Below the pieces are notes generated by a model. The model was not told where the DNA came from. It saw nothing but the letters and a program-made list of their open reading frames with translations, and searched no databases. 64,000 bases of DNA from Candidatus Bathyarchaeota archaeon. Its GTDB lineage: Archaea; Thermoproteota; Bathyarchaeia; Bathyarchaeales; Bathycorpusculaceae. Location of the stretch: contig CAVYXJ010000005.1 of NCBI GenBank assembly GCA_963772455.1, positions 1 through 64,000 of the forward strand. The letters run 5' to 3'. Shown one piece after another: positions 25,917-48,203 of the stretch; the stretch's first letter is position 1; each line of letters starts with the position of its first letter. Position numbers and translations under genes: made by a program.

Positions 25917-25950
25917 TTAAACGTGTGTGACTGTGATCTCGCACCAACAA
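25917..25950 (-). promoter_or_regulatory. Motif copy A plus TATA-like box upstream of csbD
   Basis: Sense strand TTGTT-ggtgcgagatc-ACAGTCACA-cacgt-TTAATAAA. Confidence 0.75.
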
Positions 25951-25986
25951 ACATGCATTAAATTGTAAGAATACAAAATCACCTTT

Positions 25987-26220
25987 ATGAGTGCAAAAAA
26001 CTGGAAAGTAGCCAATATGAAAAAAGAGAAAATGGAACTTATATTCGTTGTGAAACATCCAAGAAAAAAATTATTTGCCTTTCTGGATGGTCATCATAGA
26101 TATTATGCTTACAAAGAGTTAGGTTTGAAATATATCAGCAGTGCTCAAGCGGGTGATTATTCAAAAGCGTCATTTTTTATTTTACAGAATACGGCTATTT
26201 CCAACCTAGTTCAGTGGTAA
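25987..26220 (+). pseudogene. ParB/Sulfiredoxin-like N-terminal domain remnant
   Basis: IFVVKHP...FAFLDGHHRYYAYKELG; short and apparently degraded. Confidence 0.55.
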
Positions 26221-26396
26221 CAGAAACATTAGAAAGTCGGCTAAGGAGTTTCACCAAAACCTCAAGATTTTCTAGATAAATTTTTGGTTGATTAGACCAT
26301 TAAATGATAAATGACTATGAGTTTCGCTCCCACAAGAATTTTTTTCATACCTTTACTCGACCATACATCGACTATTACCACGGTACACTTTTTGTT

Positions 26397-28574
26397 TTAT
26401 GCTGGTACATTTTCGGTTTTTTCTCGGATCCAATGACGATGTTGAGCGATTGCTGCTATGAAGGCTTCGTTGAATTCGCTGGTTGAACCCAATTGTGATG
26501 TGACAATACCTTTATCTGAAACCGTACCCTTGGTTTTCATGTCAACCAAATTAATGTTTTCTATGTTTGTCTCGGAAAGAAGTCTAATGGCTTCGCTTGT
26601 AGCTCCTATAGTTTTGCAATGTTTGAAGGCTTGGTTAATAAAATTAATGACATACCCATGTTTCTCAAGGTTGTCGACGTTTTTTTGTCCACCTGGGACA
26701 TAGACTGCATCGTAAAGGACAGAAGAAGCACTTATAAAGTGTCTATCTACGAGCGTTTGTTTTCCAGCTTCATCCTTGATTGTGCCAAGGTATTGGGATA
26801 CAATTTCTACTTTTGCACCCTGCGCTTCTAAAGCTGCTTTTGTGGCGGAGAAATCCTTTCCATTGAACCCATCCATAGCTAAAACTGCAACTTTTCGCGT
26901 TTTAACGCCCTTAACAGTATTAGCCATACTAAGAGCCTTTGATTCTTTTATTTGTGGGTTTTTTGTTGTAACGTGTGATTTGTTAGAGGGAGGGTTAACT
27001 CCGACGGCTTTAGCGATTTGAATAGCCAACTCTGGAGCTATGTTATCGAACATGTTAACAACTTTTTGGCGTGTTTCCTTACTTTTGAGTTTACCGATTT
27101 CAAATTGGAACGCTTTAATGATATGCTGTTTCTCGTGATCAGACATACTATTCCAGAACAACGTTGCCTGACTATAATGATCATCAAAGGTTTCACTTCG
27201 TTTTCTAATTGTTGTGCCGCTGACTTCTTGGGGATAGTGAACGTAGCTTTCTTTTTGATTTAGTTCAGGTTTAGGATAGTTGTTGTTGATGCTGTTGGGG
27301 TTGTAGGCTGTTTTGCCAATGTTTATGGTCATTCGGTGCATGCCATCTCTCTGGTTGTTGGCGACGGGAGAGAGGGTTTTGTTTATTGGGATTTCAGTGA
27401 AGTTTGGTCCACCTAGTCTAGTGAGTTGGGTATCTAAATATGAGAAGAGCCTACCCTGCAACAGAGGATCGTTACTAAAGTCTATACCTGGAACCACATT
27501 TGCGGGGCAGAAGGCAACTTGTTCAGTTTCGGCGAAAAAATTGTCTGGGTTACGATTAAGCACCATTTTACCAATGCGCTGTACGGGTATTAATTCTTCA
27601 GGCCACAGTTTGGTGGGATCAAGGACATCGAATTCGAATTTAAATTCATCTTCTTGGCAGATAATTTGGATTCCAAATTCCCATTCAGGATAATCACCTG
27701 CTTCGATAGCTTCCCAGAGGTCTCTGCGGTTAAAGTCTGAATCTTTGCCAGCTATTTGTTGCACCTCATCCCATACCAGTGAATGCATGCCTAGCAGTGG
27801 TTTCCAGTGGAACTTGACAAAGAAAGCTTTGCCCTCTTCGTTAACAAAGCGGTAAGTGTTGACGCCGAAGCCCTCCATCATGCGAAAACTACGGGGCAAT
27901 GCTCTATCGGACATCACCCACATTACCATGTGAGCAGTCTCCGGAGTGTTTACAACGAAGTCCCAGAATGTGTCATGCGCGGAGGCAGCCTGGGGAATCT
28001 CATTATCTTGCTCAGGTTTTACAGCATGAATGAGATCTGGGAATTTTATGGCGTCTTGTATGAAAAACACGGGAATGTTGTTGCCCACAAGGTCATAGAT
28101 GCCTTCTTCGGTGTAGAATTTGGTTGCAAAGCCACGGGCATCTCTGACAGTGTCTGAGGATCCACGTGAACCTGCAACTGTTGAAAACCTTACGAAAACC
28201 GGTGTTTTCTTGTTAGGGTCTGATAGAAACTTTGCCTTGGTGTATTGATTCATGGATTTGTATACTTGGAAGTAGCCATGAGCTCCTGAGCCTCTTGCGT
28301 GTACGACTCTTTCTGGGATGCGTTCGTGGTCAAAATGTGTGATTTTTTCTCTGAGATGAAAATCTTCAAGAAGAGTTGGACCGCGGGAACCGGCGCGCAG
28401 AGAATTGTCGGTGTCATTTATTTTTATGCCTAAATCCGTGGTTAGCGGCTTGTTTTTTGAATCTGCGCGAAAAGGCTCTACATTCTTCTCGATTGTTGGT
28501 TGATCTATTGTGTTAATTTTATTTTGGTTTTCTTTATCTGAGTTTTCTGTTTTCTTCAATGTATTCTCACTCAC
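26397..28574 (-). CDS. katE: Large-subunit heme catalase HPII with C-terminal DJ-1/GATase-like domain
   Basis: FDHERIPERVVHARG, RFSTVAGSRGS, DLVGNN, RLFSYLDTQ. Confidence 0.97.
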   Translation of the reverse strand: MSENTLKKTENSDKENQNKINTIDQPTIEKNVEPFRADSKNKPLTTDLGIKINDTDNSLRAGSRGPTLLEDFHLREKITHFDHERIPERVVHARGSGAHGYFQVYKSMNQYTKAKFLSDPNKKTPVFVRFSTVAGSRGSSDTVRDARGFATKFYTEEGIYDLVGNNIPVFFIQDAIKFPDLIHAVKPEQDNEIPQAASAHDTFWDFVVNTPETAHMVMWVMSDRALPRSFRMMEGFGVNTYRFVNEEGKAFFVKFHWKPLLGMHSLVWDEVQQIAGKDSDFNRRDLWEAIEAGDYPEWEFGIQIICQEDEFKFEFDVLDPTKLWPEELIPVQRIGKMVLNRNPDNFFAETEQVAFCPANVVPGIDFSNDPLLQGRLFSYLDTQLTRLGGPNFTEIPINKTLSPVANNQRDGMHRMTINIGKTAYNPNSINNNYPKPELNQKESYVHYPQEVSGTTIRKRSETFDDHYSQATLFWNSMSDHEKQHIIKAFQFEIGKLKSKETRQKVVNMFDNIAPELAIQIAKAVGVNPPSNKSHVTTKNPQIKESKALSMANTVKGVKTRKVAVLAMDGFNGKDFSATKAALEAQGAKVEIVSQYLGTIKDEAGKQTLVDRHFISASSVLYDAVYVPGGQKNVDNLEKHGYVINFINQAFKHCKTIGATSEAIRLLSETNIENINLVDMKTKGTVSDKGIVTSQLGSTSEFNEAFIAAIAQHRHWIREKTENVPA

Positions 28575-28730
28575 TAAATAATTAATTTACTTTAAGGAAA
28601 CCCACCGTGGCTAACTTGAAAGATGGAAACCTTTGAGAAGCAATATTGGCTCGTGTATTTCGGTCTCGTTTTAGCTTAACCTGACTTACGCCTTAAAGGT
28701 TAACCAAGATCTATACAATAACAATTGTCG

Positions 28731-28770
28731 TAATTTAAATAATCATGTGACTGTCTGACTGCTATAACAA
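28731..28770 (-). promoter_or_regulatory. Motif copy B plus TATA-like box upstream of katE
   Basis: Sense strand TTGTT-atagcagtcag-ACAGTCACA-tgatt-ATTTAAAT. Confidence 0.72.
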
Positions 28771-29757: not shown

Positions 29758-29760
29758 CGA

Positions 29761-30141
29761 TTAGATAATTTTTTTCTGGGTTAACTTTTCGTTTATGAGA
29801 ATAAGTAATTCGTCGGGTTTTACTGGTTTTACGATGTAGGCATCAATACCTAAATCGAGAGCTTTTGACCCTAAATCCAAGGATGGCAAACCTGTGATCA
29901 TTAACTTGACAGCGTTACTTTCATTGTCGCGTATCTTCTCAAGCAAGTCTGTCCCATCCATATCAGGAAGCCGAAAATCAATCAACAACACAGCGTAGGA
30001 ACGCTTACGAACTTTTTCCAATGCTTCCTTACCTGTTTCAGCCATTTCCACTTCATAACCATTTTTTGCAAGAAGTCGACTAAAGGTTCTAAGAATAGAT
30101 TTGTCGTCGTCAATGATTAAGACTATCTTGTTATCGCTCAA
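29761..30141 (-). CDS. Single-domain response regulator
   Basis: IIDDD, LIDFRLPDMDG, ITG, YIVKP. Confidence 0.93.
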   Translation of the reverse strand: MSDNKIVLIIDDDKSILRTFSRLLAKNGYEVEMAETGKEALEKVRKRSYAVLLIDFRLPDMDGTDLLEKIRDNESNAVKLMITGLPSLDLGSKALDLGIDAYIVKPVKPDELLILINEKLTQKKII

Positions 30142-30177: not shown

Positions 30178-32394
30178 TTATTTATATTGCGGCAAACGTA
30201 CGGTAAAAGTTGTTCCTTTACCCTCTTGACTTTCAAAAGATACTGTTCCACCAAGTGATTCAGTCATTCGCTTAACTACAGGCAAACCAAACCCTTGACC
30301 TTTAGATTTAGTTGTGAACATTGGGGTAAACATCTTGCCTTGTATTTCTTTAGGTATGCCAACGCCTGTGTCCTTTACAGCTATCACTATATCGTTTGCT
30401 TCCTTATGCACCGTTATCGTTAGTTTGCCACCATTTGGCATTGCTTGCACAGCATTAGTCACCAAATTGTAAAAAATACGATTAAGGTAGTCAGGATCAG
30501 CCACAAGTTTTCTTGCTTCATCTTCGACCTCAACACTTACCTTAACGTTCTTCGGTAAACCGTTTTTTGTAACAACTTTTCGATGATCTGTTTTAAGTCA
30601 GCTTCTTCAGCATTAGGGTTAAGAGGTCTTGCGTAATCTTGTAGGTCTTGAACGATTTTGTTAATGTAGTCAATGTTCTTTTCAATTTCATTCAAGCTTT
30701 CAAGTATTGCTTCTTCTCTTCACCATCAGGCAGACGCAGCTAATTCTGACTTGGCTAAGTAGACGTCACCTGTTATAGCCTGCAGTGGATTACGAATGTC
30801 ATGTCCAACCATACCTGCAGTTGCGCCGATAGCGGCTAAACGCTCAGAATCTTGAAGTTGTTTTTCCAATTTTTTCCGTTCAGTAATATCCCTGAAAAGT
30901 GTCCCAACAACATTTTTGGAATAAAGGAAGTAGAAGCAGTCTAGCCACTTGTCAATATCCTTGTTATATAGCTCAACATGCTCTGATATTCCAGTTTTGG
31001 CAACTCTATCAGGAACCTCAAGCCAATGGAGTTCTTGGTTTGGAGAAATATATTTTGCAGTCTTGTCGAGAATGTCCTCTGCTTTAACACCTATGATTTT
31101 TTCGTAAGCATGGTTTACTTTCAAGAACTTATGGTCTATCGGTTTTCCGTTTTTATCGTATACCAACTCAATTAACTGGAAACCATCTTGGCTATTATCA
31201 AATACAGAGTGGTAGAGTTGCTCACTTTCTTTAAGTGCTTCTTCAGCTTTTTTGCGTTCAGTGATGTCTCTGAATATTAGCACCACGCCTGTGGTTTTGC
31301 CGTCTTGGTCTTTTATGGGTGCACCGCTGTCATCAATTGGAACTTCTCTATCGTCTTTTCGGATTAAGACAGTGTGGTTAGCTAAGCCAACAACCATGCC
31401 TTCTCTGAGAACTCGCTCTATAGGACTTTCAACCTCCAAACGAGATTGCTCATTGATAATGTTAAATACTGTCTTCACTGGTTTTGATAAAGTCTCATTT
31501 AGTAACCAACCCGTCAGCTTTTCAGCCTCACCATTCATAAATGCAATTTTGCCCGATGTGTCAGTGGCTATGACAGCGTCACCGATGCTTGCCAAAGTAG
31601 TTGCCCAACGCTGCTCACTCTCTCGAAGAGAGACTTGCACTTGCTCCAGGTCTGTTTTTGATGCAGTAACAGTTTTCAAATCGGCTGCCATTTTATTGAC
31701 AGATTTTGAAATATCCGCAACCTCATCATTCTTACCTGCTTCAAGAGTATAGTTAAGGTTCCCAGTTCCTATAACACCTATTCCGTTTTTGAGCTTGATA
31801 ATAGATCTAGCTGTTCTTCGATATGCAACAAGATAAATGGTAATGAAAAATGCCCCAAGTATGCTCAAAAGAGCGATTGTAAGAATCGTATTTGTTTGGA
31901 TAGCTTGGTTTGTTTGATCTCGTATATTTTGAGTTAACTGTTGAGAATCAAAAGCAAGGGCTTGTATTTGGACAGCCATCCTATTCCACTGCGTCTGAAA
32001 ACTGGGTAAAACACGAATATTCTCATTTCTCGGAAAACTAGAAAGAAAAGATGTAACCCCAGTAAACACTGTATTTAGATTTCCCAGATCCTTGCTTACT
32101 GTATTGATAAGTGCTTGTTGTTGGGGATCAGTAGAGTTTAATGATGCCTAGCTTATTGGAAAGTGTTGAAAACTTTGCATCCCACATAGTAGTGTACGAA
32201 TTGTCTTGGTAGAGGAAGTAATTGTTTGAGATATAATTTAGGTCGCTTGCTCCAGTTTGAATTTCATTTGTGAGAACACTTTGATTGTTCAACTCGTTTA
32301 TCTGTATCATCGTTACAGCTATTGATGACCCAATTATGATTGAAACGATGCTGAAAGTTATTATGCTGATTAAGAGTTGGGTCTTTATTCTCAT
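30178..32394 (-). CDS. Membrane sensor histidine kinase (TM-HAMP-PAS-PAS-HisKA-HATPase), several frameshifts
   Basis: HAMP NDEVADISKSVNKMA, PAS domains, H box GHDIRNPL, N/G boxes NAVQAM, DTGVGI, GQGFGL spread over three ORFs. Confidence 0.9.
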
Positions 32395-32400
32395 GTCTAT

Positions 32401-34469: not shown

Positions 34470-34740
34470 ATTATCTTAGCCTCAGAATACAAAACTTAAT
34501 ACAATGGCATTGATGTACGCATATATAACTATCGAAAAATAACGATTATTTTCAAATTACCAGCAAATTAGAGAATTGGAATTAGAAAAATGCTAAAATC
34601 GGTCTTTTCACTTTTACCCCAAATAACAAGAGGTTCAAGTTACAGTGCAACCCATCCCCACAAAGAACAAAAATTGGGTAGCTGCTCAAGTTCTCTTTAT
34701 AGAAAAGAGAAAATGAATTAAAAAGTGTTCAAATCCCTCT

Positions 34741-34778
34741 TTGTTGTCGTATTGTTACAGTCACATATACTTAAGAAA
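34741..34778 (+). promoter_or_regulatory. Motif copy C plus TATA-like box upstream of the C2H2 microprotein
   Basis: TTGTT-gtcgtattgtt-ACAGTCACA-tatac-TTAAGAAA. Confidence 0.75.
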
Positions 34779-34815
34779 GCTGGCAACTGCTAATACATTA
34801 TTTAGGTGAAAAGTT

Positions 34816-35004
34816 ATGCGCAAAAAAGAACATCGTCACACAGACACATTGGGTGCCGCGTCATCTCAAGATATACCAGTAAGAGGAGTAGAACCAAGTC
34901 AAATTCCATGTGAAGTCTGCGGAAGAACATTCAAAACTCACTCGGAAATGGAAAGACACAGAGACACAACGCACCATGAAACAAAAGGACACGAGGAAGA
35001 ATAA
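34816..35004 (+). CDS. C2H2 zinc-finger microprotein
   Basis: CEVCGRTFKTHSEMERHRDTTH; AGGTGA RBS. Confidence 0.8.
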   Translation: MRKKEHRHTDTLGAASSQDIPVRGVEPSQIPCEVCGRTFKTHSEMERHRDTTHHETKGHEEE

Positions 35005-35204
35005 TTATTCAGTTCACGCCCAATGATGTGGGATTATATAACTATCTAAACTAACCACAAACTTGCTTACTTCATATTTTGATGCAATTAAGAATTACAT
35101 CTCAGGTATTTGGTTAATGTCGATCTTTTTCTATCAGGACCAACATAAAAAAAGTAAGAAATGATTTTAAGATACTAATAATTCAGAAACTCTGCATACA
35201 TTAG

Positions 35205-36488
35205 GTGTCAATGTTGGTTGTTGAAAAAGCTGTACATTTTTATTCTTGTCAATTAGCGACATCTAAATCTGTACAACAACACAAACTCCGAAAGCGTATA
35301 GCTTGGTTGTCAAATAAAGAGGGACAGGGCAGAGAGTTCATCTCACTTTTCATACCTCCAAACACTCGAATAGATGAGGTAATTGCCAACCTGAAGAAAG
35401 AAGCTGATTTAACTATCAGGGAACCTGAGAAGGTTAAAGAACGATTACAAAGTTCCTTTAAAGCTGTAATCCTTAATCTAAAACAGGTTAAGGAAATTCC
35501 GGAAAACGGGTTAGCTCTATTTGCAGGATTTTTTCCAGTTAACGAATCTGAAAAAGAAGTATTAAGCTTAGAAGAGATAGTTCCACTTGAACCGTTTAAC
35601 GCCTATTCTTACTCAATTGGCACCCATTTTGATTTAATGCCACTTAGAGAAATGCTAAGAGACCAAAAAAATATTGGAATACTCGCTTTAGATTCTAAGC
35701 AAGCTAGTTTTGGATTATTAAATGGTGAACACATTGAAATTTTAGAGAATATTTCTTCTGGAATTTCCGGAAAATCTGGAAAAGGCGGGTCGAGCCAAAG
35801 AAGATATGAACGAGAACGCGACTCCTCAATCGAAAACTTCTTTCACAGAATTGCGGAACACGCAAACAACCAATATATCAAGAAAAAAGTTAACATTTTG
35901 ATAGTCGGGGGACCTGGTCAAACTAAAAATGATTTCTTGAAAGGTGAATATCTTCATTATGAACTGAATAATATGCTTCTAAACATAGTTGACACCCAAT
36001 CCGCAGGCAAAGAAGCGCTAAAAGAGATTCTAAACAAATCATCTGAACTTCTTAAGAATATGTGTGGACCTGAAGAAAAAAGAATCGTTCAGAATCTAAT
36101 GACAGAGTTGAGTAAACAAAGTGGTTTAGCCATTTATGGTTTAGATACAGTGTTAGACGCGCTTAGAAATGGTGAAGTGCAAATTGCTATAGTGACAGAT
36201 AGCACCGATATGATTGAAAATGTTGCAGTTTGCAAAAGATGTGGGTTTTCAAAAAGGAAGATAGCAAATAAGAAAATTCATGCCATCCGAGAAATGATTG
36301 AGAGTCCATGTGAAAAGTGCAATGGGGTTTCATATGAATATAGAGAGAAAGACATTGTTGATGTTTTAGAAGATATAGCTTCTCAAACTGATGCAAGCGT
36401 TGAGGTAATTTCATCCATTTCTGATGAAAAAGCATCACTCACAGCGTTGGGTGGCTTTGCAGCTCTTTTAAGATACAAATCAGGATAA
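35205..36488 (+). CDS. Divergent aRF1/eRF1-family paralog lacking NIKS and GGQ
   Basis: Three-domain aRF1 layout: ISLFIPP, PENGLALFAG, GKGGSSQRRYER, VGGPGQTK, CxxC/CxxC, LGGFAALLRY. Confidence 0.88.
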   Translation: MSMLVVEKAVHFYSCQLATSKSVQQHKLRKRIAWLSNKEGQGREFISLFIPPNTRIDEVIANLKKEADLTIREPEKVKERLQSSFKAVILNLKQVKEIPENGLALFAGFFPVNESEKEVLSLEEIVPLEPFNAYSYSIGTHFDLMPLREMLRDQKNIGILALDSKQASFGLLNGEHIEILENISSGISGKSGKGGSSQRRYERERDSSIENFFHRIAEHANNQYIKKKVNILIVGGPGQTKNDFLKGEYLHYELNNMLLNIVDTQSAGKEALKEILNKSSELLKNMCGPEEKRIVQNLMTELSKQSGLAIYGLDTVLDALRNGEVQIAIVTDSTDMIENVAVCKRCGFSKRKIANKKIHAIREMIESPCEKCNGVSYEYREKDIVDVLEDIASQTDASVEVISSISDEKASLTALGGFAALLRYKSG

Positions 36489-38753: not shown

Positions 38754-40169
38754 TTGAAAATAATTAAAGAACAAATCAAGTTGCAAACAAACGCATTTCG
38801 CGAAAAATTTGAAAGAAATAACTTGAAAAAAATCTTTGCTGATAATTATCCTCTCTTAAGCATACTAATTGGCTACTTATTTGTAGCATTAACAATAGGA
38901 CCGTTCTACAATAGTGATACTGCAACTGAATACAACGCTGTATCGGGAGTATTGAAATATGGCTTGCCAAAACTGGATAACGGCAATTTCATTAATCAAC
39001 CCCCATTAGGATTCTATTCTCAAGCCTTTTTCTTCAACATGTTCGGTTCTTCAATAAGCAATGGCACGTCCTTGGTCACCTTGTTTGGGCTTGGATGCAT
39101 CGTCTTAGTATATGGAATTGCCAATACCGTGTACAATAAGACTACAGCTTTTTTCGCAGCTACCCTTTTTGCTTTTAGCCCATGGCATCTGATATTGTCA
39201 AGGACTTTCCTAATTGATGTTCAATGTCTCTTCTTTAGTCTGTTTTCGCTATTTCTTGGAATATTTGCCGTCCGCCGAGATTCAATTAAGTTATTTTTGG
39301 GTGGAGGGATCATTTTTGCAATGGCTTTTAGCACAAAATTATATGCTGTGTTTATTCTTATCCCAATTTTGGCTTTCTTTTTCTTCTATAGATCTGAAAA
39401 AATAAGACAAAAATTAATTTGGTTGGGTGCATTTTCCGCGCCAACATTGTTGTTTTCTTTTTTGTGGTATCAAACAATTGCGAAAGTCGGAATGGGAGCT
39501 ATTATTTTTCACACCGATTTTGCAATCCATGAATCTAGCGGTATAGTTCCTTCTTACTTTTTTGTAAGCAATTTCCTCACTAACTATGGTTTAGGCTGGT
39601 TATTTGTGGATGCAGCAATTCTATCACTATTACTATGTTTCACCCAAAAACGTTTATTTCGCAGATTTCTTGCTTTTGATATAATCAGCTTGTTAACCAT
39701 AATTTGCATATTAAGTGTGAACACTTTTTTGGGAGCAACCTTGAAACTTAATTCCCCTTATCTGACCGCGATAAAATATGATTATCAATCATTGCCTTTC
39801 TTTGCTTTCTTAGCGGGATCATTGATAACAAAAAGCATTTCACTCATTAATTTAAGCAAGCTAAAGAAAAAATTAACTAAAATAACCTATGTTTTTGCCG
39901 CTTCATTAGGATTAATCCTTGTGCCACTTTCAATAGGAATCAACATGAGTTATGTGAATCTATTTTCCACTTGGACCTATTTACTTTTCAAAGCGGACTC
40001 AAACATTAAAGTGGGGTATTCATTTTTTAGCGATACTCCAGTTGGTTTAAACAGCGTTCTGTTTAATTTTCAATATTTAGGGTATGCATTAATGCTATCA
40101 GGAATTGTTTGGCTAAGCAGGCATAAAATATTTTCATTACTGAAAACAGTAAATGTTAAAATCCATTAA
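38754..40169 (+). CDS. GT-C fold glycosyltransferase (family 39/PMT-like)
   Basis: DTATEY, NQPPLGFY, FSPWHLILSR...DV, AFSTK; multi-pass. Confidence 0.85.
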   Translation: MKIIKEQIKLQTNAFREKFERNNLKKIFADNYPLLSILIGYLFVALTIGPFYNSDTATEYNAVSGVLKYGLPKLDNGNFINQPPLGFYSQAFFFNMFGSSISNGTSLVTLFGLGCIVLVYGIANTVYNKTTAFFAATLFAFSPWHLILSRTFLIDVQCLFFSLFSLFLGIFAVRRDSIKLFLGGGIIFAMAFSTKLYAVFILIPILAFFFFYRSEKIRQKLIWLGAFSAPTLLFSFLWYQTIAKVGMGAIIFHTDFAIHESSGIVPSYFFVSNFLTNYGLGWLFVDAAILSLLLCFTQKRLFRRFLAFDIISLLTIICILSVNTFLGATLKLNSPYLTAIKYDYQSLPFFAFLAGSLITKSISLINLSKLKKKLTKITYVFAASLGLILVPLSIGINMSYVNLFSTWTYLLFKADSNIKVGYSFFSDTPVGLNSVLFNFQYLGYALMLSGIVWLSRHKIFSLLKTVNVKIH

Positions 40170-40490
40170 ATTAAATATTGAACAAAAACAAGTTACATAA
40201 TGAAGAGAATATATTTAAGAGAAGAAGAGTGAAAAATTTGCACTTCTTCTTCTCTTAACATTCTTCTACCTTTAACAGTTGCTCTTTGGATGAAGCAGAG
40301 ACTATGATCCTTTCATAGCTGAAAAAATCCGAAGGGCTTGATTCAACATGTTAGTGTAGGCGCAGATTACGATGCATTGGATTTTGTGGATGCAAAGATC
40401 GCCCAGTCTTATCCTCAAGTTAAGCCTATAGCCATTCCTTGTAAAAACAAGTCTTATTTATTTGAGGGACATACAAGAAAGTGATGAATT

Positions 40491-40862
40491 ATGCAAAACG
40501 ATACAGAAACAAAAATTAAGCAAGACCTTTTGGCTGAAATTCAAAACTTAGAACAAAATTACATAGTAATTCAGGGTTTTATCGCTGGAAAAGAATATGA
40601 GGTTACAGTAATCGGATCAAGCCTTCAATCATTCAAAGACAGCTTAAGTAGAGCAAGCGCATTTGTCCTTGCATTATACAACTTTAAAGGCAAAAGAGTC
40701 AACATTCCATGGGAACCGCTCTTCACTAACTTGGATTATGCACTCGCGACTTTATCAACTACTCCAAAGAAAGAAGCTGTCCAAGTAATCTTATCCATGG
40801 CTAAAGAACAGATTGAACAGGTATTATCATATTTCTCAGCTCTAAAAGAATCACTCAAATGA
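40491..40862 (+). CDS. Hypothetical helical protein
   Basis: 123-aa ORF with TATA-like and GTGA elements upstream. Confidence 0.65.
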   Translation: MQNDTETKIKQDLLAEIQNLEQNYIVIQGFIAGKEYEVTVIGSSLQSFKDSLSRASAFVLALYNFKGKRVNIPWEPLFTNLDYALATLSTTPKKEAVQVILSMAKEQIEQVLSYFSALKESLK

Positions 40863-41090
40863 CATTGATTCTCAGCAACGCTTAATCAGAATTAATGCCT
40901 TTTCTTTTTGATTATTATGGTTTCTTTTTCTGTAGCTCAAGTAGACTTAGTTTCGCAAATTTTCATTTTTGTTTTTCTTACTGTTGGATTATTTGTGGAG
41001 CGGGTTTCCTGCTGGATTCGAAGGCAGAGACTAACTGTATTCAAGGATGAAGAGTTAAGTATAACCCAAATCAAACATTTGTGAAGAAAG

Positions 41091-41456
41091 ATGGCATATT
41101 TACGTAACGAGAAAGAAAACCTCGAAGTATCATATCCATTGGAAAAGATTTGGGCTGTAATACCAGAAACCGTCAAGATTTTGGAATGGACAATAGAGGA
41201 GCAAGACGACACAGCCCACAAGGCTAAGATCAAATCGAAAGGTGGTTTCTTAGCCTACAATTCAATTCTTTTCCTTGAAGCGTCTTCGGTTGATGAAAAT
41301 ACAACTAAAATGTCTATCTATGCAGAAACACCAGTAACCACAATAACATCAATTATTGATTTCGGCAGGACCAGAGACCGCGTAGGTCAATTTATTGAAA
41401 CATTAGGTAGGCTTATGGAAAAGAAAGATAAACAAAAGAAATCTCAAGCGGATTAA
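41091..41456 (+). CDS. Hypothetical protein
   Basis: 121-aa ORF with alpha/beta pattern. Confidence 0.65.
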   Translation: MAYLRNEKENLEVSYPLEKIWAVIPETVKILEWTIEEQDDTAHKAKIKSKGGFLAYNSILFLEASSVDENTTKMSIYAETPVTTITSIIDFGRTRDRVGQFIETLGRLMEKKDKQKKSQAD

Positions 41457-41494
41457 GCAAAAATCTAATAACATTAGCAAATGTTTGATTATTT

Positions 41495-42461
41495 ATGATA
41501 CGTGTTCTCAACTTGGGCGACAATTCTGAAAGAACAGTGAGTCATGAAGAATTAACAGGATTAAACCTCTCGAGCCTTTGGCTAGAACTTGTTGACCCTA
41601 CTGAAAACGAGTTGAGATCGGTATCAAATGCAACACAGTTTCCCATTACTTTTTTGAGATTACCAACAACTGAAGGATACGTCAATTTACGATTAGAACC
41701 AGATTACGGTGTCATTAATTTTCTTAGTCATGCAAGACATTGTATCAACCAAAAAAACACACCCAGTTGTCCTAGTTTTTTCGAAGACTTTGCTCGTAAC
41801 CGTCGCGACAAAAGAAACTCAGAAAGTCATTGATATTGCTAAAGAACGAATGAGCAAAGCTAAAATAGACCCCCCATCCCACGTTATCTATTTTATCATT
41901 GATGAAATAGTTTCCTCTCATTATATTCAAATTGAAAAACTCGAAAACCTCACCGCAAAAATGGAAGAGGAAGTCGTTGAGAAAACCTCTGCTGACACAT
42001 TAAAGAAAATATTTAGACTTAAATCAAACATGGTTAGCTTTAACAAGCTACTTTGGTATGAACGAGGACTAATTTTTAATATTAAAAAATTCGAAGAAGT
42101 CCACTTGTCTCCAAAAGCCCGAGCCTTATTTGACACAACACATGAGGATTTGACTCGGCAAATAGACATAGTTGAAACTTATAGAGAAATACTTTCAGAC
42201 GCCATAAATGTCCATTTATCAGCAATTTCAAACAAAATTAATCTCTCAATAAAAGCTTTAACAATCGTCATATTCTACTTAACAATTGTAACTACAATTA
42301 CTTCTTTCCCAAACACCGTTGCCACCTTCTTTGGAATTGCCCAGTTTGGAAACACAAATATCCTAATTATCACAACTGCATTATTGCTATCAATTGTTTT
42401 ACCTCTCGTTTGGCTTTGGAAAAAGAGTTGGCTTACCTCGAAGAGACTTGATTACCAATAA
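41495..42461 (+). CDS. CorA-family divalent cation transporter, frameshift near 41720
   Basis: LWLELVDPTENEL, long coiled coil, SNKINLSIKALT, two C-terminal TMs; GMN signature replaced by GIA. Confidence 0.82.
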
Positions 42462-42569
42462 CTCTGAAAAATAATAATTCACCTCGCACCATCCAAAACA
42501 TATTCTAACTATAAAACAGGAAAGCTACTGCGATAACTTGGATAAACTAAACAATAATTTGGGAATAAC

Positions 42570-42995
42570 ATGAGCCAAAAACAACCACCCATAATCACTT
42601 ACAAAGGCAGAAGAATAGGCATCGTCATTTTAGTTGTTTCACAATTAATTATCGGAGCTATCCACGCTTTCTTCGGGTTACTTCTTCTTGTATATGAAAA
42701 CTTTTCGTTCCTTCCAACAACAGCATTTTACGACATCAACACTTTTATTTTTGGGTTGTTAGCTTTAGTATTCGCAGTCTTTATTTGGCAAGACAAAAAG
42801 ATTGGGTGGATAGGCACAATTGCAGTTTCGTTATTTGTGATTGCTGCAGATTCTTTGACTCTTCTAGATTTACCAAGTATCCCAGGGATTCCAAAGTTTG
42901 CAGGATTTACTGAAATAGCTTATAGTGTTTTGGTTGTGGGTTATTTGCTTCAAACCAGAATAAGAAGAAAATATTTCAATCATAAGAAAAATTAA
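42570..42995 (+). CDS. Hypothetical membrane protein
   Basis: Four hydrophobic helices. Confidence 0.7.
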   Translation: MSQKQPPIITYKGRRIGIVILVVSQLIIGAIHAFFGLLLLVYENFSFLPTTAFYDINTFIFGLLALVFAVFIWQDKKIGWIGTIAVSLFVIAADSLTLLDLPSIPGIPKFAGFTEIAYSVLVVGYLLQTRIRRKYFNHKKN

Positions 42996-43024
42996 ACTTC
43001 TAAAGATATTAGAAAAACCCTAAT

Positions 43025-43690
43025 TTATCTAAGGGTTGCATTGTTGGGGTAGCCTCTGCTTTCCCAGTAACCCAGATAATCAGGGTTATCTGTTAATTCA
43101 ATGTTGGTAATCCATTTCGCCCATTTGTAGCCATATTGGCTTTCAGCGACGAGTTCGAACGGGAAGCCACGTTCAGGTGGAAGTGTCAAACCATTCATCT
43201 TGTAAGCAATAATGATGTTTTTGTCTGTGATGTAATCGATCGGGAGCTCAGTTGAATAGCCATCGTATGCGTAAAAGATTGCTGCCACCGCACTCGAGTT
43301 GACGCCTGCTTCTTTCAGCAAATCGTTTACGAGAAATCCTTCCCAAAGAATCTTAACCGACCAACCTTCAACACAATAAAGGGTTACGACTTTTTCATAT
43401 TTCTGGAACTTGCTAAGTATCTCGTCGTAAGTGTAATTCACTGTTTTGTTAACCAATCCAGTTATTGACAAGCGATAAGTGGAGATGTCGACTTGTTGTG
43501 GTCCCTTAATCGAGTTTTCCCTAAAGTCTCCGATTGAAGAAAGGTTTTCGCCTTGGTAATCGCGGATTTCTCCGGGATACAACCTTTTAGGCTGATTCAC
43601 TCCATAGTAGACGGCTAAGAAAACAAGCACTAACAACATTATTGTTAAAGAAACCGCAATTAATTTTTGATAGCGATTTTTTTTCTCCAT
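43025..43690 (-). CDS. Sulfite-oxidase-family molybdopterin-dependent oxidoreductase
   Basis: LYCVEGWS, DGYSTEL, LPPERGFPFELV, YGYKWAKW, GYWESRGY. Confidence 0.92.
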   Translation of the reverse strand: MEKKNRYQKLIAVSLTIMLLVLVFLAVYYGVNQPKRLYPGEIRDYQGENLSSIGDFRENSIKGPQQVDISTYRLSITGLVNKTVNYTYDEILSKFQKYEKVVTLYCVEGWSVKILWEGFLVNDLLKEAGVNSSAVAAIFYAYDGYSTELPIDYITDKNIIIAYKMNGLTLPPERGFPFELVAESQYGYKWAKWITNIELTDNPDYLGYWESRGYPNNATLR

Positions 43691-43782
43691 TCTTATTCAG
43701 CTCAAAAAAGTAAGAACCCTTTAACCCACTGAATGGATGTCCATCATACTTAAAAAACCCAATCCTTATTCAAAAAATTTAC

Positions 43783-44229
43783 TTACCAAAAAATCGAAAG
43801 TTGATTCGCAGGATAACAAAATATTAAGCTTTTTTTTAGCGTACTCAAATACTTAGGCAATCCTTCGATGCATTGAATTTCTCTGCCTGCAATTGCGCGT
43901 AGAGCATGCCAAAACTTCAGGTTCACCAAGATTTTTTCCCATTCCAGGCTCTCTTGAAGATGTTTAGTACCTTCTTGTCCTCGTCGATCAAAATCAAGTA
44001 ACAGAATAACTTCTCTTGAACATAGCCTTTGGATTTCTACCGTTGCTTCAAGAAAAGATTTACCTCCAGTCTTCACCATTAAAATCGGGCCTTTAGCGCC
44101 CAATTCTTGAAGAGCATCAGCATCTTTCTTGCCTTCAACAATTAGTGGAGTACCTTCCGATGATTTTTCTATCAACTGTGTTATGATTTGCTCTATTTTC
44201 TCTAATTTTTCTTTACGGTGTGTAGACAA
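43783..44229 (-). CDS. Small Toprim-domain protein
   Basis: IVEGKKD and LLLDFDRRG. Confidence 0.9.
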   Translation of the reverse strand: MSTHRKEKLEKIEQIITQLIEKSSEGTPLIVEGKKDADALQELGAKGPILMVKTGGKSFLEATVEIQRLCSREVILLLDFDRRGQEGTKHLQESLEWEKILVNLKFWHALRAIAGREIQCIEGLPKYLSTLKKSLIFCYPANQLSIFW

Positions 44230-44234
44230 AACAG

Positions 44235-45323
44235 TTACCGGGTAATCTTTGCATTGCGTACAGTCTCTAAACAGTCTTTGGCTTCTTTATTATTTTCAAA
44301 GTAGCGTCTAACTGGTTCAAGGATGCTTGCAAGTTCAGTTGCAACACCATTTTTAAGATCCATCGGATGCAATTTGCCATCTGAATAGGCTGCCTCAAGT
44401 TCTTGGAAGCACTGGAACTCTGCATTTCCGCCGAATTTAGCTGGACGCTCTATTCTAAAGACTGGTTTTTCCCTGAAAATAATGTATTTGCAAATGTCCA
44501 TTATAGGATTGTACTTTACGGTTCTTTCTGGACAGAACGCTTTACTCATCTTTTGCTTGATTTCCTCTGGTGAATCATAAATGAAGATGCAGGTGTCTGG
44601 TTTACTCTTAGACATTTTTGCTGAAGCAACTGCTTCTCTTTCTTGTCCTTCGGGAATTGGCCAAATTCCAGGTTTAGCTAAGCCCTGCAACAAATGGTGA
44701 TGTACGGAAACCGGTTTCCAGCAACCGATTTTTTCTCCGATTTCTCTTCCAACCATGTTTGCTTTGCGTTGATCCATGCCTAGTTGACAAATTTTGACTT
44801 TCATATGGAAGATATCGGCCACCTGCATAGGTGTGTAGAGATAGTCGGAAACGTAGTGGGCTTCACCCTCTTTTCTACCGGCGATTTCAAGAGTTCGAGT
44901 TGTTCGAGCTAAAGTCAGGTTCTTGGCTATTATCACTGTTTTTGCCCAATAGTCAATGTCTTTGTAGAGTTCATCCGAATAAATGAATTCGACTTTATCG
45001 CCTGGCACCCCAAGGGCGAGCCAGGAATGTCTAAAGAGGTCTGCGGCTTTGCGGATAAGGGTTAAGTCGCCACCAAGTTTGTTGTTTAACCATGCATGCC
45101 AAGTTGCCAAGAACGCTTTGAAGTGGATTCCAGCTTCCGCAAAGTCTTTCATTTTATAGGCGCAAATAACGCCTGTTCCTAAATGTGCTAGACCAGAAGG
45201 TTCCCAACCGTTATAGGCGATTGGGTGTTCTTCAGTTTCTAGAAGCGCTCTCAAATCCTCTGCAGTGACTAATTCTTCAGTTGGTGGTCTGCAAATTAAT
45301 TCAATTTTCTTTTCTATGTCCAA
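44235..45323 (-). CDS. tyrS: Tyrosine-tRNA ligase (archaeal type)
   Basis: YNGWEPSGLAHLG, YTPMQVADIF, LGMDQRK, KMSKS, LHPMDLK. Confidence 0.95.
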   Translation of the reverse strand: MDIEKKIELICRPPTEELVTAEDLRALLETEEHPIAYNGWEPSGLAHLGTGVICAYKMKDFAEAGIHFKAFLATWHAWLNNKLGGDLTLIRKAADLFRHSWLALGVPGDKVEFIYSDELYKDIDYWAKTVIIAKNLTLARTTRTLEIAGRKEGEAHYVSDYLYTPMQVADIFHMKVKICQLGMDQRKANMVGREIGEKIGCWKPVSVHHHLLQGLAKPGIWPIPEGQEREAVASAKMSKSKPDTCIFIYDSPEEIKQKMSKAFCPERTVKYNPIMDICKYIIFREKPVFRIERPAKFGGNAEFQCFQELEAAYSDGKLHPMDLKNGVATELASILEPVRRYFENNKEAKDCLETVRNAKITR

Positions 45324-45620
45324 ATTGGCACCAAACCCTTAGTGGTTATAGGTTTAATGCTAGTGATGAACTTAAAAATTCGCTTTCTACTCTAAATTCG
45401 CTAGCTGAATTCTGCCTCTTTAAGAGGAAATAATAAAAAACATTTTTTTTCAAAAAAAAATAGTTTGCTAAGGTATCTGGGTAAATATAATTACAAATAG
45501 GTTCACAATATAATTGTTAATTAGGTTACAAAAACCCAAGATAATTATTGATTAAAAAAGGAAAAGATGTAGTTTGCGCGTATAGCATTCAAAATCTGGT
45601 CGGTGATAGTACTATTGGAG

Positions 45621-46349
45621 TCATTTTTGACTATACCGATTATGATGAGTGAAGTCTCCAATATCTCTTCTGACGCGCAAGTCCTTTGCGGGTGCGGGTA
45701 TTGTTGGATATCCCAGACGAATTGTGTAAGAAATCTTTAACGGGTCAGGGATATCAAGAATCTGCTTCAGTTCCTCCTCTACAGATACCGTTGCTGATAG
45801 ACTTAGAATCTGCATGCCAATTCCCAAAGCTTGTGCAGTCAGCCAGATATTTTCCATAAGGCAGCCTAAACCGATAAAGCCGTAAATATCCACAGCAAGA
45901 GCGGGTGCTTTCTTTCTTGGGTCATATAAAACCATTAGAAGAGTTGGGCTCCCTCTAATGGAATTACTAATCGGTATTGGGGGAGAACGCGCGATTTGGC
46001 TGAATTTGGCTGGGTCAACCCAGTCCGGCGGAAAACCAGTTGACAAAATCCCTGCCTTCTTATGCTTGAGCTCCTCCTCTGAGAATGACAAGTGCCCATA
46101 GTTATCGCGTAAGAAATCCTCTAAAACGCATGATTTTATACTGCTTATTCTTCCAAGCACCGCTCTGTCGTCGACAACCATGATTTCGTAGTTCTGCATG
46201 TTGTGTCCTGTAGGCGCCCAACGTGCAGCCTCCAATAAATGTTCGAGATTCTCCTTAGAGATTGGTCTATTTGGGTCAAATGGAACACGAACGGATTTAC
46301 GTTCCTTAATAGTCTTAAAAACGTCTTTCAAACGAAAACCCTTTAACAC
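45621..46349 (-). CDS. Nitroreductase family protein
   Basis: IKERKSVR, EAARWAPTGHNMQ, ENIWLTAQALGIG, IRLGYP. Confidence 0.92.
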   Translation of the reverse strand: MLKGFRLKDVFKTIKERKSVRVPFDPNRPISKENLEHLLEAARWAPTGHNMQNYEIMVVDDRAVLGRISSIKSCVLEDFLRDNYGHLSFSEEELKHKKAGILSTGFPPDWVDPAKFSQIARSPPIPISNSIRGSPTLLMVLYDPRKKAPALAVDIYGFIGLGCLMENIWLTAQALGIGMQILSLSATVSVEEELKQILDIPDPLKISYTIRLGYPTIPAPAKDLRVRRDIGDFTHHNRYSQK

Positions 46350-46763
46350 ATAATTTATTCTGGAAAATGAACTTTTCGTCCAAAATATCCTTTATATTTC
46401 GAAATTGCCTGCTTTTCTTGTAGCCATAACACTTTGGCATAATTATCAAAGGATTTACCAACATAATTCTCAATTAGGTTAGAAAAAGCTGAGATAATTA
46501 TTAACCCAAAACAACCCTTTTCCTTTTATTGTTTTTAAAGTAAAGTTAGGTATAGCATATGTGGAGTGTGAGAGGAATGAAAGCGATAGTGGTAACTCCT
46601 TCATCTTGAAAAAATAAACGTTTTCTCTTTAAATTATCATTTATTTTTGAAATCATCCTTATCTCTTAGTTCATTATTGTATATGAAGTATCCAGATTTG
46701 GTTCATTGAGCAGAAAGCTTTTCTCTTTTTGAATGGCATATTTGGAAAGTATGTGAATCAAAT

Positions 46764-46985
46764 TTGGATATTATGAAAGCAATAAAATTAAGGAAAGACC
46801 TTCAAATCACCAATTTTCCACGAATGCAACTTCTTGGCACTTGTAAAGAAGGTTATTTGCTATGCATAAGCGCAATTTTAGTTAATGCTTTGCTTCTTAG
46901 GCAGATAGAACTTGTTGCTAAAGAAAACAAGTTATCCATAGTTTTTGAACAGGGTTACTGGATGCTTATTGGTCAAAGCAACTAG
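46764..46985 (+). CDS. Small hypothetical protein
   Basis: 73-aa ORF with upstream GTGA; no recognised motif. Confidence 0.45.
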   Translation: MDIMKAIKLRKDLQITNFPRMQLLGTCKEGYLLCISAILVNALLLRQIELVAKENKLSIVFEQGYWMLIGQSN

Positions 46986-47451
46986 CGTTCAGGTCGCTGT
47001 GAAACTAAAACACGTCCACTTCCCAATAGCTCTTTGACCTGCCAAAGGCGAGTTATGCACCTAAAACTCAGAGTTAAAAGTAGAAGAAGCGCAAATTTTT
47101 TTCTCTTCTTCTTCTAATGAATATATTTTTCGAGTTCGTGTTGATAAAGACTAAATAAAACAATTTGCAACCACTTTTCAGAAACTACAAAAATAAGGTC
47201 GCTGAGGGCTTGAAACCTAAACTAAATTCCATCCAAAAATATCCGTTTATTTTCTACTAATTTATAGAAGAGCAGTATTCCTTAATTAAATTAGGATTGT
47301 GTTTTTAGGGACCATAAGAAGGGTATAACTTGGGAACTCAGGAACAAACCTTACCATCAAAAACTTATTTTTTGCCTTATGATGCTATTATTTGAAAAAA
47401 GAAAAGATTGGTTTTTAAATTAAGATTTAACCAAATCAACTTTGCAGGAGT

Positions 47452-48042
47452 TTATTTTTCTTGCAGCACCTGAAGTTTAGCCTTGTATTCTTCTTCAGAT
47501 ATTTCTCCCTTAATAAACCTCAATTTCAACTGAACTAACGGATCTTCAACAGATTGAGACTGAACAGAAGTATTCTGCCTAAAAATCATCTCCTTAGGTT
47601 TATTAAACTCCCAATCCGCCATACCAAGAAGCTCACCCTTACGCTTCATTGAAACCGGCTCAACCGCGATACCATTATAAGCAATTTCCAAAGCATCAAT
47701 AAAATTCGCCATATCCCCGCGATTTACTCTCTCCACCGTAAAAATAGCACCATCCTCCATTTTAACCGTAACTTCTCCCCACACAACTGCCCCTCTATGC
47801 GCACTAATTTGAAGCACCTTCTGCAAAGGCAAGGATTTGAAGTCGTATCTACCCAAATGTTTCTCATCAAAATAGATAAGGCGAATGTTCGTAAGCACTA
47901 TGTAATTTGTTCGTTCAGCTATAACAAAGCTGTTGAGGGAACTGATAACTTCTTCGCCAGGGGAAAGATTCTTCTTTAAACCGCCGGGTAACTTATCAAC
48001 TAAATTTTTACTAGAAGGTTTCTCACTCACTTTATACACCAT
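47452..48042 (-). CDS. Bacterial PH-like domain protein with C-terminal SHOCT domain
   Basis: LSPGEEVI...IVLTNIRLIY; LKLRFIKGEISEEEYKAKL. Confidence 0.82.
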   Translation of the reverse strand: MVYKVSEKPSSKNLVDKLPGGLKKNLSPGEEVISSLNSFVIAERTNYIVLTNIRLIYFDEKHLGRYDFKSLPLQKVLQISAHRGAVVWGEVTVKMEDGAIFTVERVNRGDMANFIDALEIAYNGIAVEPVSMKRKGELLGMADWEFNKPKEMIFRQNTSVQSQSVEDPLVQLKLRFIKGEISEEEYKAKLQVLQEK

Positions 48043-48142
48043 CTTACAAGATTAATGGTATTTTATTCCTGTATTAAAAAGTATGCAGATCACAAAAATA
48101 ATGGATTCCTTCAAAGGCGCTTACTCGTTTTAAATGTCTGCC

Positions 48143-48203
48143 TGTAACTCTCTGTTGACACACGCTTGTAACTATAGTTCTACAGTCACAAATCGTTAAG
48201 TAG
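48143..48203 (+). promoter_or_regulatory. Motif copy D with an extra upstream TGT-N12-ACA box
   Basis: TGT-aactctctgttg-ACA (48143-48160), then TTGTA-actatagttct-ACAGTCACA-aatcg-TTAAGTAG. Confidence 0.72.

Follow-up and report, generated by a model that had tools for sequence, protein, structure and literature searches.

Bacterial general stress regulons, such as those of sigma-B, RpoS and EcfG, include CsbD, KatE, KGG/YciG-type and small membrane and hydrophilic proteins, and place tens of genes under one common promoter signature, a -35/-10 pair. Archaea are, to our knowledge, a domain without sigma factors. Archaeal repressors usually act downstream of or over the TATA/TSS region, and the factors Ptr2 and TFB-RF1 serve few promoters. 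According to the available portion of PMC4706686, the sites of these two factors lie directly upstream of the core promoter, where they recruit TBP or TFB. The same portion describes the Thermococcales glycolytic motif (TGM, consensus TATCAC-N5-GTGATA), a palindromic operator with a short spacer through which one global wHTH regulator, TrmBL1/Tgr, governs tens of promoters and activates when bound upstream of BRE/TATA (PMC4706686). In Haloferax volcanii, the thiol-based TrmB-family regulator OxsR controls a stress regulon and binds a semi-palindromic motif, CGGnCGnGCG, upstream of BRE/TATA at activated genes (PMC9426492, available portion).

The window analyzed here, a 64-kb stretch of a Bathyarchaeia genome, contains four promoter-proximal copies of ACAGTCACA, each of which had been reported by a sequence-only reading to stand at a fixed distance from an upstream TTGT. 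We found that ACAGTCACA belongs to an imperfect palindrome of 26 bp, TTGTkRYTGT-N6-ACARYmACAA (consensus also TTGTGRYTGT-N6-ACARYCACAA), and forms its half next to the TATA box. The inner core of this palindrome, GACTGT-N6-ACAGTC, is embedded in a 10-6-10 arrangement. The four copies, here termed predicted operators, and the features around them are as follows.

25710..25880, minus strand: csbD, 56 aa (Pfam CsbD, E 2.3e-14), start codon 44 nt from the palindrome
25912..25921, minus strand: TATA-like box TTTAATAAAA of the csbD promoter, beginning 3 nt past the palindrome
25925..25950, minus strand: predicted operator copy A, palindrome TTGTTGGTGC-gagatc-ACAGTCACAC, 25.4 bits
26397..28574, minus strand: katE, large-subunit catalase, 725 aa (Pfam Catalase, E 3.8e-184), start codon 170 nt from the palindrome
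28733..28739, minus strand: TATA-like box TTTAAAT of the katE promoter, beginning 5 nt past the palindrome
28745..28770, minus strand: predicted operator copy B, palindrome TTGTTATAGC-agtcag-ACAGTCACAT, 23.8 bits, kept upstream of katE orthologues in L001, L003, L004 and L005
34741..34766, plus strand: predicted operator copy C, palindrome TTGTTGTCGT-attgtt-ACAGTCACAT, 24.2 bits
34771..34776, plus strand: TATA-like box TTAAGA of copy C, beginning 4 nt past the palindrome
34816..35004, plus strand: C2H2 zinc-finger microprotein, 62 aa, 49 nt from the copy C palindrome
35205..36488, plus strand: eRF1-like protein, 427 aa, eRF1 domains 1-3, downstream of the C2H2 ORF
48166..48191, plus strand: predicted operator copy D, palindrome TTGTAACTAT-agttct-ACAGTCACAA, 22.5 bits
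48196..48201, plus strand: TATA-like box TTAAGT of copy D, beginning 4 nt past the palindrome
48248..48310, plus strand: membrane microprotein ORF, 20 aa, shortened by a 1-nt deletion, 56 nt from copy D
48668..49441, plus strand: FMN_red flavoprotein, 257 aa, 477 nt past copy D

Much of the sequence-only reading was borne out: exactly four copies of ACAGTCACA occur in the window, at the places that it had given (mean 0.37 in dinucleotide shuffles, with 0 of 100 shuffles reaching four), each copy faces an ORF across 44 to 170 nt and is followed by a TATA-like box beginning 3-5 nt past the 26-mer, and the spacers of the four copies differ. Matches to TTGT-N12-ACAGTCACA with at most one mismatch number five in the window against 0.09 expected (0 of 100 shuffles reach five), and the 9-mer ACAGTCACA alone, with the same tolerance, shows no enrichment there (13 matches vs. 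11.7 expected). The reading had also described a TGT-N12-ACA dyad; its symmetry is real, but the motif is larger and carries four TGT/ACA triplets. The second dyad proposed upstream of copy D was not recovered, as the PWM score there is below 10 bits and inverted repeats of at least 6 nt are absent apart from trivial ones. Contig C15 is a colinear copy, 92-95% identical, of 34.7-49.9 kb of the window, so copies C and D and their C15 counterparts do not count as independent. Relative to its 39-aa copies on C15 and C14, the microprotein behind copy D has lost 1 nt; the copies of copy D on these contigs also retain a conserved G in the inner left TGT that copy D lacks. The eRF1-like gene may be co-transcribed with the C2H2 ORF, and the FMN_red gene is a possible distal member of the copy D transcription unit.

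A PWM scan of the 2.45-Mb genome, which is closest to Bathyarchaeota MAGs, identified 64 distinct sites of at least 17 bits. At a threshold of 16 bits there were 132 strand-matches, compared with 3 in a reversed-genome control, and at 20 bits 103 compared with 0. Among TTGT spacings of 4 to 20, only N12 is enriched (8 exact and 23 one-mismatch matches vs. 0-4 and 0-16 for the other spacings), which agrees with the fixed spacing first seen in the window. Mirrored positions of the oriented logo are equal in information (G3 and C24, 2.32 bits each; G9 and C18, 1.86 and 1.91 bits), and information extends beyond the seed positions: 29 of the 31 seed sites, for example, carry G in the inner left TGT. 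This two-fold symmetry is consistent with a dimeric DNA-binding factor, as had been suggested.

By crude longest-ORF calls, with ORFs of at least 150 aa taken as genes, 63 of the 64 sites lie outside genes, and the intergenic share of the genome is 17.7% by the same calls. The rigid placement relative to a TATA-like box is genuine: TTAA begins exactly 4 nt past the palindrome in 28 of 128 orientations (1.6 expected), a TATA-like word occurs at +2 to +5 at 51 of the 64 sites, and ORF starts lie a median of 57 nt downstream (IQR 49-74). The box consensus at the sites, tTTAAa, is of the genome's general type: gCTTAA-type words are, in general, most frequent 41-50 nt before start codons. At some sites, a TATA-like box and an ORF are found in each direction. 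With 4-5 nt between its end and the TATA box, the palindrome adjoins or overlaps the TFB recognition element (BRE). Assembled RNA-library contigs from four studies cover relatives of katE and csbD at 90-99% likeness, although such contigs cannot reveal starts or induction.

The sites are also conserved upstream of orthologues in other genomes. All four archaeal-type katE loci (68-85% identity) have retained a site at a distance of 48-89 nt upstream, its spacer being different, and none of the remaining 76 katE loci has one upstream. In G111, which belongs to another family, sites precede orthologues (39-79% identity) of eight site-linked ORFs of G000, representing seven gene families besides katE; the same gene families follow the sites of G008, and C2H2 microproteins lie downstream of sites in both genomes. 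The motif is present in 33 of 41 genomes of the genus, in at least eight genera of the family and in one other family of the class; in the rest of the phylum it does not exceed chance. Our search of the literature returned no description of the 26-bp motif and nothing on promoters or regulons of Bathyarchaeia.

Named genes behind the sites encode CsbD, KatE (Catalase), MsrA (PMSR), KGG, HSP20, DUF1428 (two copies) and DUF5670, and further targets encode TatA, GYD, Cupin_2, F420_oxidored, zinc-finger microproteins, RAM-only proteins and many unnamed small proteins. The proposal of a sigma-B-like stress regulon therefore holds in part: CsbD, KatE, KGG, MsrA, Hsp20 and DUF1428 resemble bacterial general-stress proteins, but unnamed microproteins, secreted proteins and copper/Tat-related genes make up many of the targets, and general stress is thus a description of no more than a part of the regulon. 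Moreover, about half of the ORFs behind the sites match no Pfam family, and the term stress regulon thus applies to a subset. Like sigma-B, RpoS and EcfG regulons, the set shares one signature across tens of genes; the signature here, however, is an operator-like palindrome joined to an archaeal TATA/TFB promoter, and no partner-switching module was identified. A bacterial sigma-B/RpoS-type -35/-10 promoter was rejected, given that the element is palindromic and precedes a TATA-like box in a genome encoding TFB (four full genes), Alba and GatD/GatE.

We consider it fairly likely that the sites are operators of a sequence-specific, two-fold symmetric archaeal transcription factor, dimeric or tetrameric, that contacts TFB/TBP and co-regulates about 50-60 promoters of this genome. 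Such a factor would bind the 26-bp palindrome just upstream of BRE/TATA, and the sites would then mark a large, previously undescribed co-regulated set of mostly small genes, many of them for stress-protection proteins. Since the site always lies upstream of BRE/TATA at a rigid distance, we infer that the factor contacts TFB/TBP and is probably an activator, switching transcription on at a putative stress signal. Protein binding and dimer symmetry are likewise predicted from the form of the sites. Activation of this kind is the mode of TrmBL1 and OxsR, and placement directly upstream of the core promoter recalls Ptr2 and TFB-RF1. TGM resembles the present motif in its two-fold symmetry with a 5-6 nt spacer, but the sequence differs and the TGM consensus is absent: the half-sites here span 10 bp with two TGT triplets each. 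TGM sites are mostly downstream, whereas all sites here are upstream at rigid spacing, and the lineages differ, as do the targets (sugar metabolism for TrmBL1, stress and small proteins here). The OxsR motif is short and CG-rich, unlike this palindrome, and catalase, CsbD and KGG-type proteins are not among the targets reported in the available portion of the source (PMC9426492).

A repressor acting on the same operator and regulon is rather unlikely in our view, yet it suits the promoter anatomy equally well. It would occupy the BRE-proximal palindrome, which ends 4-5 nt from TATA and overlaps the expected BRE, block recruitment of TFB/TBP and be released under stress. The TATA words are normal for the genome and not visibly weak, and thus give no hint of weak promoters that depend on an activator, and TrmB masks BRE/TATA to repress (PMC4706686, available portion). 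Nevertheless, in none of the 64 cases does the site overlap or follow the TATA/TSS region of the gene that it faces, the exact +4 spacing suits stereospecific contact better than simple occlusion, and upstream sites go with activation for TrmBL1 and OxsR in the available portions of both sources (PMC4706686, PMC9426492).

It is improbable that the element is an extended promoter sequence recognized by an alternative TFB, or by a TBP/TFB pair, as an archaeal counterpart of an alternative sigma factor, which the sequence-only reading had entertained. The element does abut the BRE, and G000 carries TFB genes in four full copies and one partial copy. However, a symmetric palindrome reaching 30 nt upstream of TATA is unlike a BRE, some sites face TATA-like boxes and ORFs in both directions as noted above, and TFB counts do not separate motif-positive genomes (also two in G008 and three in G111) from motif-negative ones (one full and one partial each in G006 and G150). 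That the sites are ends or remnants of a MITE- or IS-like mobile repeat, or a recombination site, intergenic by chance, is scarcely credible: some copies do lie in duplicated DNA (identical flanks in C3/C19/C18; copies of copy D in C15/C14), but flanks, which the earlier reading had named as a possible refutation, are unrelated at 57 of 59 oriented sites, which remain distinct after removal of near-identical flanks, information is confined to the palindrome and TATA box, the spacers are not alike, the distance to ORF starts is constant, and orthologues with 39-85% protein identity still have the site upstream.

As to the regulator of the predicted operators, every candidate tested fails to give a clean phylogenetic profile against the motif, and a TrmB-family gene is the best lead. 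The candidate (262 aa, vs. the single-domain wHTH with a sensing cysteine of OxsR in the available portion of PMC9426492) aligns over its full length with TrmBL2 structures. TrmB-family genes lie beside sites in several genomes, TrmB-MEDS genes abut sites in five genera, and 9 of 10 genomes of the family panel with a TrmB homologue also have the motif. Within the genus, a homologue (E<=1e-35) occurs in 14 of the 33 motif-positive genomes and is missing from 19, and identity in the wHTH domain is at most 45% in G008, G235, G258 and G111. An Sso10a-like HTH_45 regulator was rejected: orthologues of the gene beside site C11 22873, at 65-77% identity, occur in 51 of 60 genera, the majority of which lack the motif, and PF14947 was found in 195 of 201 genomes of the class.

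It is possible, though we hold this only tentatively, that these promoters constitute a true archaeal general stress response, in which one master factor acts on the four-triplet palindrome in a rigid register at about 60 promoters and the regulon consists largely of transferred bacterial-type genes. The master factor may be TrmB-like and may work with zinc-finger microproteins and a histidine-kinase/receiver-only relay in the same islands; bacterial-type stress proteins (KatE, CsbD, KGG, DUF1428) would have arrived by transfer and then come under the control of an archaeal operator. If true, this would be a functional analogue of sigma-B/RpoS/EcfG without sigma factors, and a case of bacterial-type stress genes under archaeal promoter logic. 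Bathyarchaeia are abundant and uncultured, and the motif offers a testable handle on their regulation: the 26-bp oligonucleotide can be used with recombinant candidate factors (DAP-seq, EMSA), the list of about 60 predicted co-regulated genes per genome can be checked in peat and soil metatranscriptomes, and dozens of unnamed microproteins can be annotated as stress-linked through the motif. It also suggests how terrestrial lineages of Bathyarchaeia handle oxygen and other stress.

The four motif copies reported by the sequence-only reading, which face csbD, katE, a C2H2 microprotein ORF and a membrane microprotein ORF (copies A to D, respectively), were found in the window exactly as described. 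Their invariant TATA-proximal half, ACAGTCACA, occurs four times in the window versus 0.37 expected, and TTGT-N12-ACAGTCACA with at most one mismatch gives five matches versus 0.09 expected; the fifth (60828-60852, one mismatch) was dropped with a position weight matrix (PWM) score below 10 bits. A second dyad, also claimed just upstream of copy D, found no support. The source genome (G000; 2.445 Mb, 24 contigs, 39.7% G+C) is archaeal, and the window encodes Alba, an Lsm protein, a RIO kinase and GatD/GatE. Genome-wide, ACAGTCACA is present 30 times, with TTGT exactly 12 nt upstream in eight cases, and, of the spacings between 4 and 20, N12 alone is enriched, at 8 exact matches and 23 with one mismatch. 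The others reach 0-4 and 0-16, respectively, and runs of TTGTTGT account for the minor peaks at 9 and 6. Positions outside the seed are informative as well, the inner left TGT having G in 29 of 31 seed sites, and one site is matched in both orientations. It follows that the element is a 26-bp imperfect palindrome containing four TGT/ACA triplets, TTGTkRYTGT-N6-ACARYmACAA. When the PWM was refined on the G000 genome and the reversed genome was used as the control, 132 strand-hits at ≥16 bits were obtained versus 3 in the control, and 103 at ≥20 bits versus 0. These correspond to distinct sites numbering 72 at ≥14 bits and 64 at ≥17 bits, and the two halves of the palindrome are equal in information in an oriented, non-redundant logo of 57 sites. 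Islands of sites were observed on contig C12 (seven in 180-199 kb), on contig C7 (six in 7.9-23.4 kb) and in the window (four).

Based on crude longest-ORF gene calls made in the present analysis, all but one of the 64 sites fall outside ORFs of ≥150 aa; the intergenic share of the genome under the same calls is 17.7%. Of these 64 sites, 51 have a TATA-like word at +2 to +5 on one or both sides, and in 28 of the 128 orientations TTAA begins exactly 4 nt past the 26-mer, compared with 1.6 expected from its intergenic frequency. This TTAA box is the ordinary TATA/BRE type of the G000 genome, because CTTAAA, AAGCTT and TTATAT-type words peak genome-wide 41-50 nt upstream of start codons. Among 52 oriented promoters, the palindrome lies at a median of 57 nt from the ORF start (IQR 49-74), and the downstream ORFs are a median of 84 aa long (≤110 aa for 39 promoters); a few sites have boxes and ORFs flanking them on both sides. 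Thirteen RNA runs match part of the window, each with 5-11% of sampled words and all as contigs. In four of them, contigs match coding parts of katE and csbD at 90-99% likeness, as assembled contigs without starts, strand or induction, and the gaps of such contigs over promoter regions carry no weight as evidence.

The ORFs downstream of the sites were assigned to a range of Pfam families, whose names are family labels rather than tested functions: CsbD, large-subunit catalase, MsrA (PMSR), KGG-repeat protein, Hsp20, DUF1428 (two copies), DUF5670, GYD, Cupin_2, 3-dmu-9_3-mt/PhnB-like, TatA, F420_oxidored, LigB and AHSA1. The same set of downstream ORFs includes C2H2 zinc-finger microproteins, secreted or Tat-signal proteins, a receiver-only response regulator and Lrp/AsnC ligand-binding (RAM) proteins that stand alone, and about half of the downstream ORFs (15/35 in one tested set) have no Pfam family. 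In bacteria, CsbD, KGG, KatE and similar proteins have a stress meaning. The six-site island at C7:7900-23500 (L082) contains multicopper oxidase-like genes, a Tat-signal protein, TatA/TatC, a TRASH-domain protein and an ABC/MacB-type exporter, suggesting that one branch of the regulon concerns copper or the envelope. In another genome (G232), the densest site island includes a heliorhodopsin gene (Pfam E 1e-93; L153, G232:C39:5001-15000, 1946-2761 on the minus strand), with a 24.9-bit site about 220 nt away.

Within the window, the C2H2 microprotein is followed by an eRF1-like protein (35205-36488) with a weak domain 1 (E 2e-4), possibly a paralogue of release-factor or Pelota-like type with a link to stress. 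This pair is duplicated on contig C15 (17.9 kb), which is colinear with window 34710-49852 at 92-95% identity and shares its gene order and both of its operators; the contig represents a segmental duplication of this stretch or else a strain variant that was binned along with it. Compared with its C15 copy, the ORF after copy D (48248-48310) has a 1-nt deletion in a GTA repeat, and the copy D operator has lost the conserved inner G; this is either a decaying copy or an assembly error.

We also examined whether the site is retained upstream of orthologous genes. In the named collection, the closest katE loci (79-85% identity) belong to MAGs with the title 'Candidatus Bathyarchaeota archaeon'. 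Four katE loci, from three Bathyarchaeota MAGs and one contig under an acidobacterial name, retain the site (20.9-27.9 bits), with a different spacer and a TATA-like word after it, at 48-89 nt ahead of the aligned start. No upstream site was found at the remaining 76 katE loci (bacteria, methanogens), two of which have weak 13-16-bit matches elsewhere in the locus. The last of the four, L005 (DATGZD010000003.1), is filed under a Candidatus Sulfotelmatobacter sp. MAG; its katE is 68% identical to the window's and is preceded by the archaeal palindrome and a TATA-like box. It is probably an archaeal contig binned into a bacterial MAG. In G111, from another family of the class, 81 matches with at most one mismatch were obtained versus 1 in the control, and the sites precede CsbD (two copies), DUF1428, DUF5670, TatA, Hsp20, DJ-1/PfpI, Band 7 and other genes, as well as a C2H2 finger followed by AhpC. 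Eight G111 ORFs have G000 counterparts (39-79% identity) whose own upstream 450 nt likewise contain a site. In G008, of the same genus as G000, the sites precede KGG proteins, a C2H2 finger and unnamed families common to G000.

Taxonomic distribution of the strict pattern TTGTNNNTGTNNNNNNACANNCACA, with the pattern read backwards as control; compared genomes are samples of their groups and not mutually independent
Genus: 33/41 genomes match; controls 0/41
Family panel (one genome per genus, ≤1 mismatch): ≥8 matches in 8/61 genomes (36, 32, 28, 23, 18, 14, 11 and 8); controls 0-3
Class: 12/201 genomes (G000, eight of the same genus, G104, G215 with a single match, and G111 with 20)
Phylum outside the class: 2/256 genomes, chance level

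With up to one mismatch, a few real-looking sites were also present in several more genomes of the family panel, and none in about 31. Three genomes of the same genus (G006, G112 and G150, ≥96% complete) have 0-1 match even with one mismatch. These motif-negative genomes look depleted in transcription factors overall, with 1, 0 and 3 HTH_45 hits, respectively, compared with 5-18, and few TrmB-like genes.

The element is two-fold symmetric, 26 bp long, set in rigid register with the TATA box, and conserved, all of which point to a putative operator at about -35 to -60 that a DNA-binding dimer or tetramer would recognise. A candidate factor bound there would contact TFB/TBP and activate transcription. 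Such an activator is favoured by analogy with archaeal regulators whose sites have been mapped, because binding upstream of BRE/TATA goes with activation for TrmBL1 (PMC4706686) and likewise for OxsR (PMC9426492). A repressor that masks the BRE is a serious rival, since the TATA boxes at the sites are not visibly weak. The sequence-only reading had also considered an alternative TFB as the protein that reads the element. G000 has four full TFB genes, and this explanation is unlikely because the site is symmetric and TFB gene counts do not discriminate motif-positive from motif-negative genomes. A mobile repeat, of which the motif would be the end, is excluded by the unrelated flanks of the sites.

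Candidate regulators were judged by their phylogenetic profile against the motif. Small proteins of the CxC..HxxxH family (CxC proteins) share an invariant C-x-C-G...P-D-L...H-x3-H pattern and have no sequence match in Pfam or PDB. Their AlphaFold2 model predicts a zinc-finger-like core of a beta-hairpin and a helix (pLDDT 75-80; 64 overall).

Copies of the CxC small-protein family
C12:197506-197730 (L081:17506-17730), G000
C11:22547-22819, minus strand, G000
C21:31226-31498, G000
C12:196660-196914, G000
L171:2921-3241, minus strand, G104

All four G000 copies are directly downstream of a palindrome, and in both G000 and G104 one copy directly precedes the TrmB262 gene, a 262-aa TrmB-family gene. 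As a regulator the family was rejected, no member being found in G008 or G111. An HTH_45/Sso10a-like gene (C11 23076-23384) has orthologues in 51 of 60 genera whether the motif is present or not, and the HTH_45 of G111 that looks autoregulated is without a homologue in G000; Sso10a dimers carry two wHTH domains at opposite coiled-coil ends (PMC4941522). Further candidates were discarded: an ArsR/DUF7347 protein of 187 aa without a close orthologue in G008 or G104, a wHTH-DUF5752 protein that occurs in motif-negative G006 and G150, and an HTH_10 protein (window 53301-53945) that is absent from G237, G234 and G232 and found in at least five motif-negative genera. The receiver-only response regulator (window 29764-30141, minus strand) was also set aside: its orthologues at ≥62% identity are confined to the strongly motif-positive genera G235, G058, G104 and G258, and it is missing from G237, G234 and G232. 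Together with a histidine kinase, it is located just upstream of the katE promoter (29764-30141, 30181-30504 and 30726-32069, all on the minus strand); the kinase is of HAMP-PAS type with its HATPase part in a separate ORF, and both proteins recur near sites in G000, G008, G111 and G235.

The TrmB family is the best lead. The TrmB262 gene (C12 198020-198808) lies between sites in the densest G000 island, and its product aligns over its full length with TrmBL2 structures (E 2e-7); G000 has six further TrmB paralogues. Orthologues 66-80% identical are present in G104, G224, G268 and G058, and TrmB-MEDS homologues 36-37% identical in G251, G232, G234, G267 and G237. In these five TrmB-MEDS genera, the start of the annotated ORF is 0-21 nt away from a 22.8-25.5-bit palindrome, the distance from the conserved M-L-x-x-FGLT to this palindrome is about 45-60 nt, and the genes on its other, TATA-bearing side are not conserved. 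In G132, the same position holds a degenerate palindrome, with no other site in the genome. The sole TrmB-like gene of G111 has a 16.7-bit site 98 nt upstream, and another TrmB gene in G235 is 102 nt from a 31.4-bit site. A TrmB262 homologue at E≤1e-35 is found in 14 of the 33 motif-positive genus genomes and in one motif-negative genus genome. Because the other 19 motif-positive genomes (including G001, G010 and G012) are without it, and G008, G235, G258 and G111 reach at most 45% identity in the wHTH domain, the TrmB262 subfamily is not necessary for the motif; it may belong to a set of paralogues that can replace one another, or just be a gene that is often a target. That a TrmB-family protein regulates the sites is possible, and we put it forward tentatively, on the doubtful side of even.

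No description of the motif or the regulon was found in the literature outside bioRxiv supplements and subscription journals. The kind of element, an operator upstream of the archaeal core promoter that defines a regulon, is known. As far as searched, the motif with its four-triplet architecture, rigid register and size of about 60 promoters is new, and so is the bacterial-type stress content of the regulon in Bathyarchaeia.
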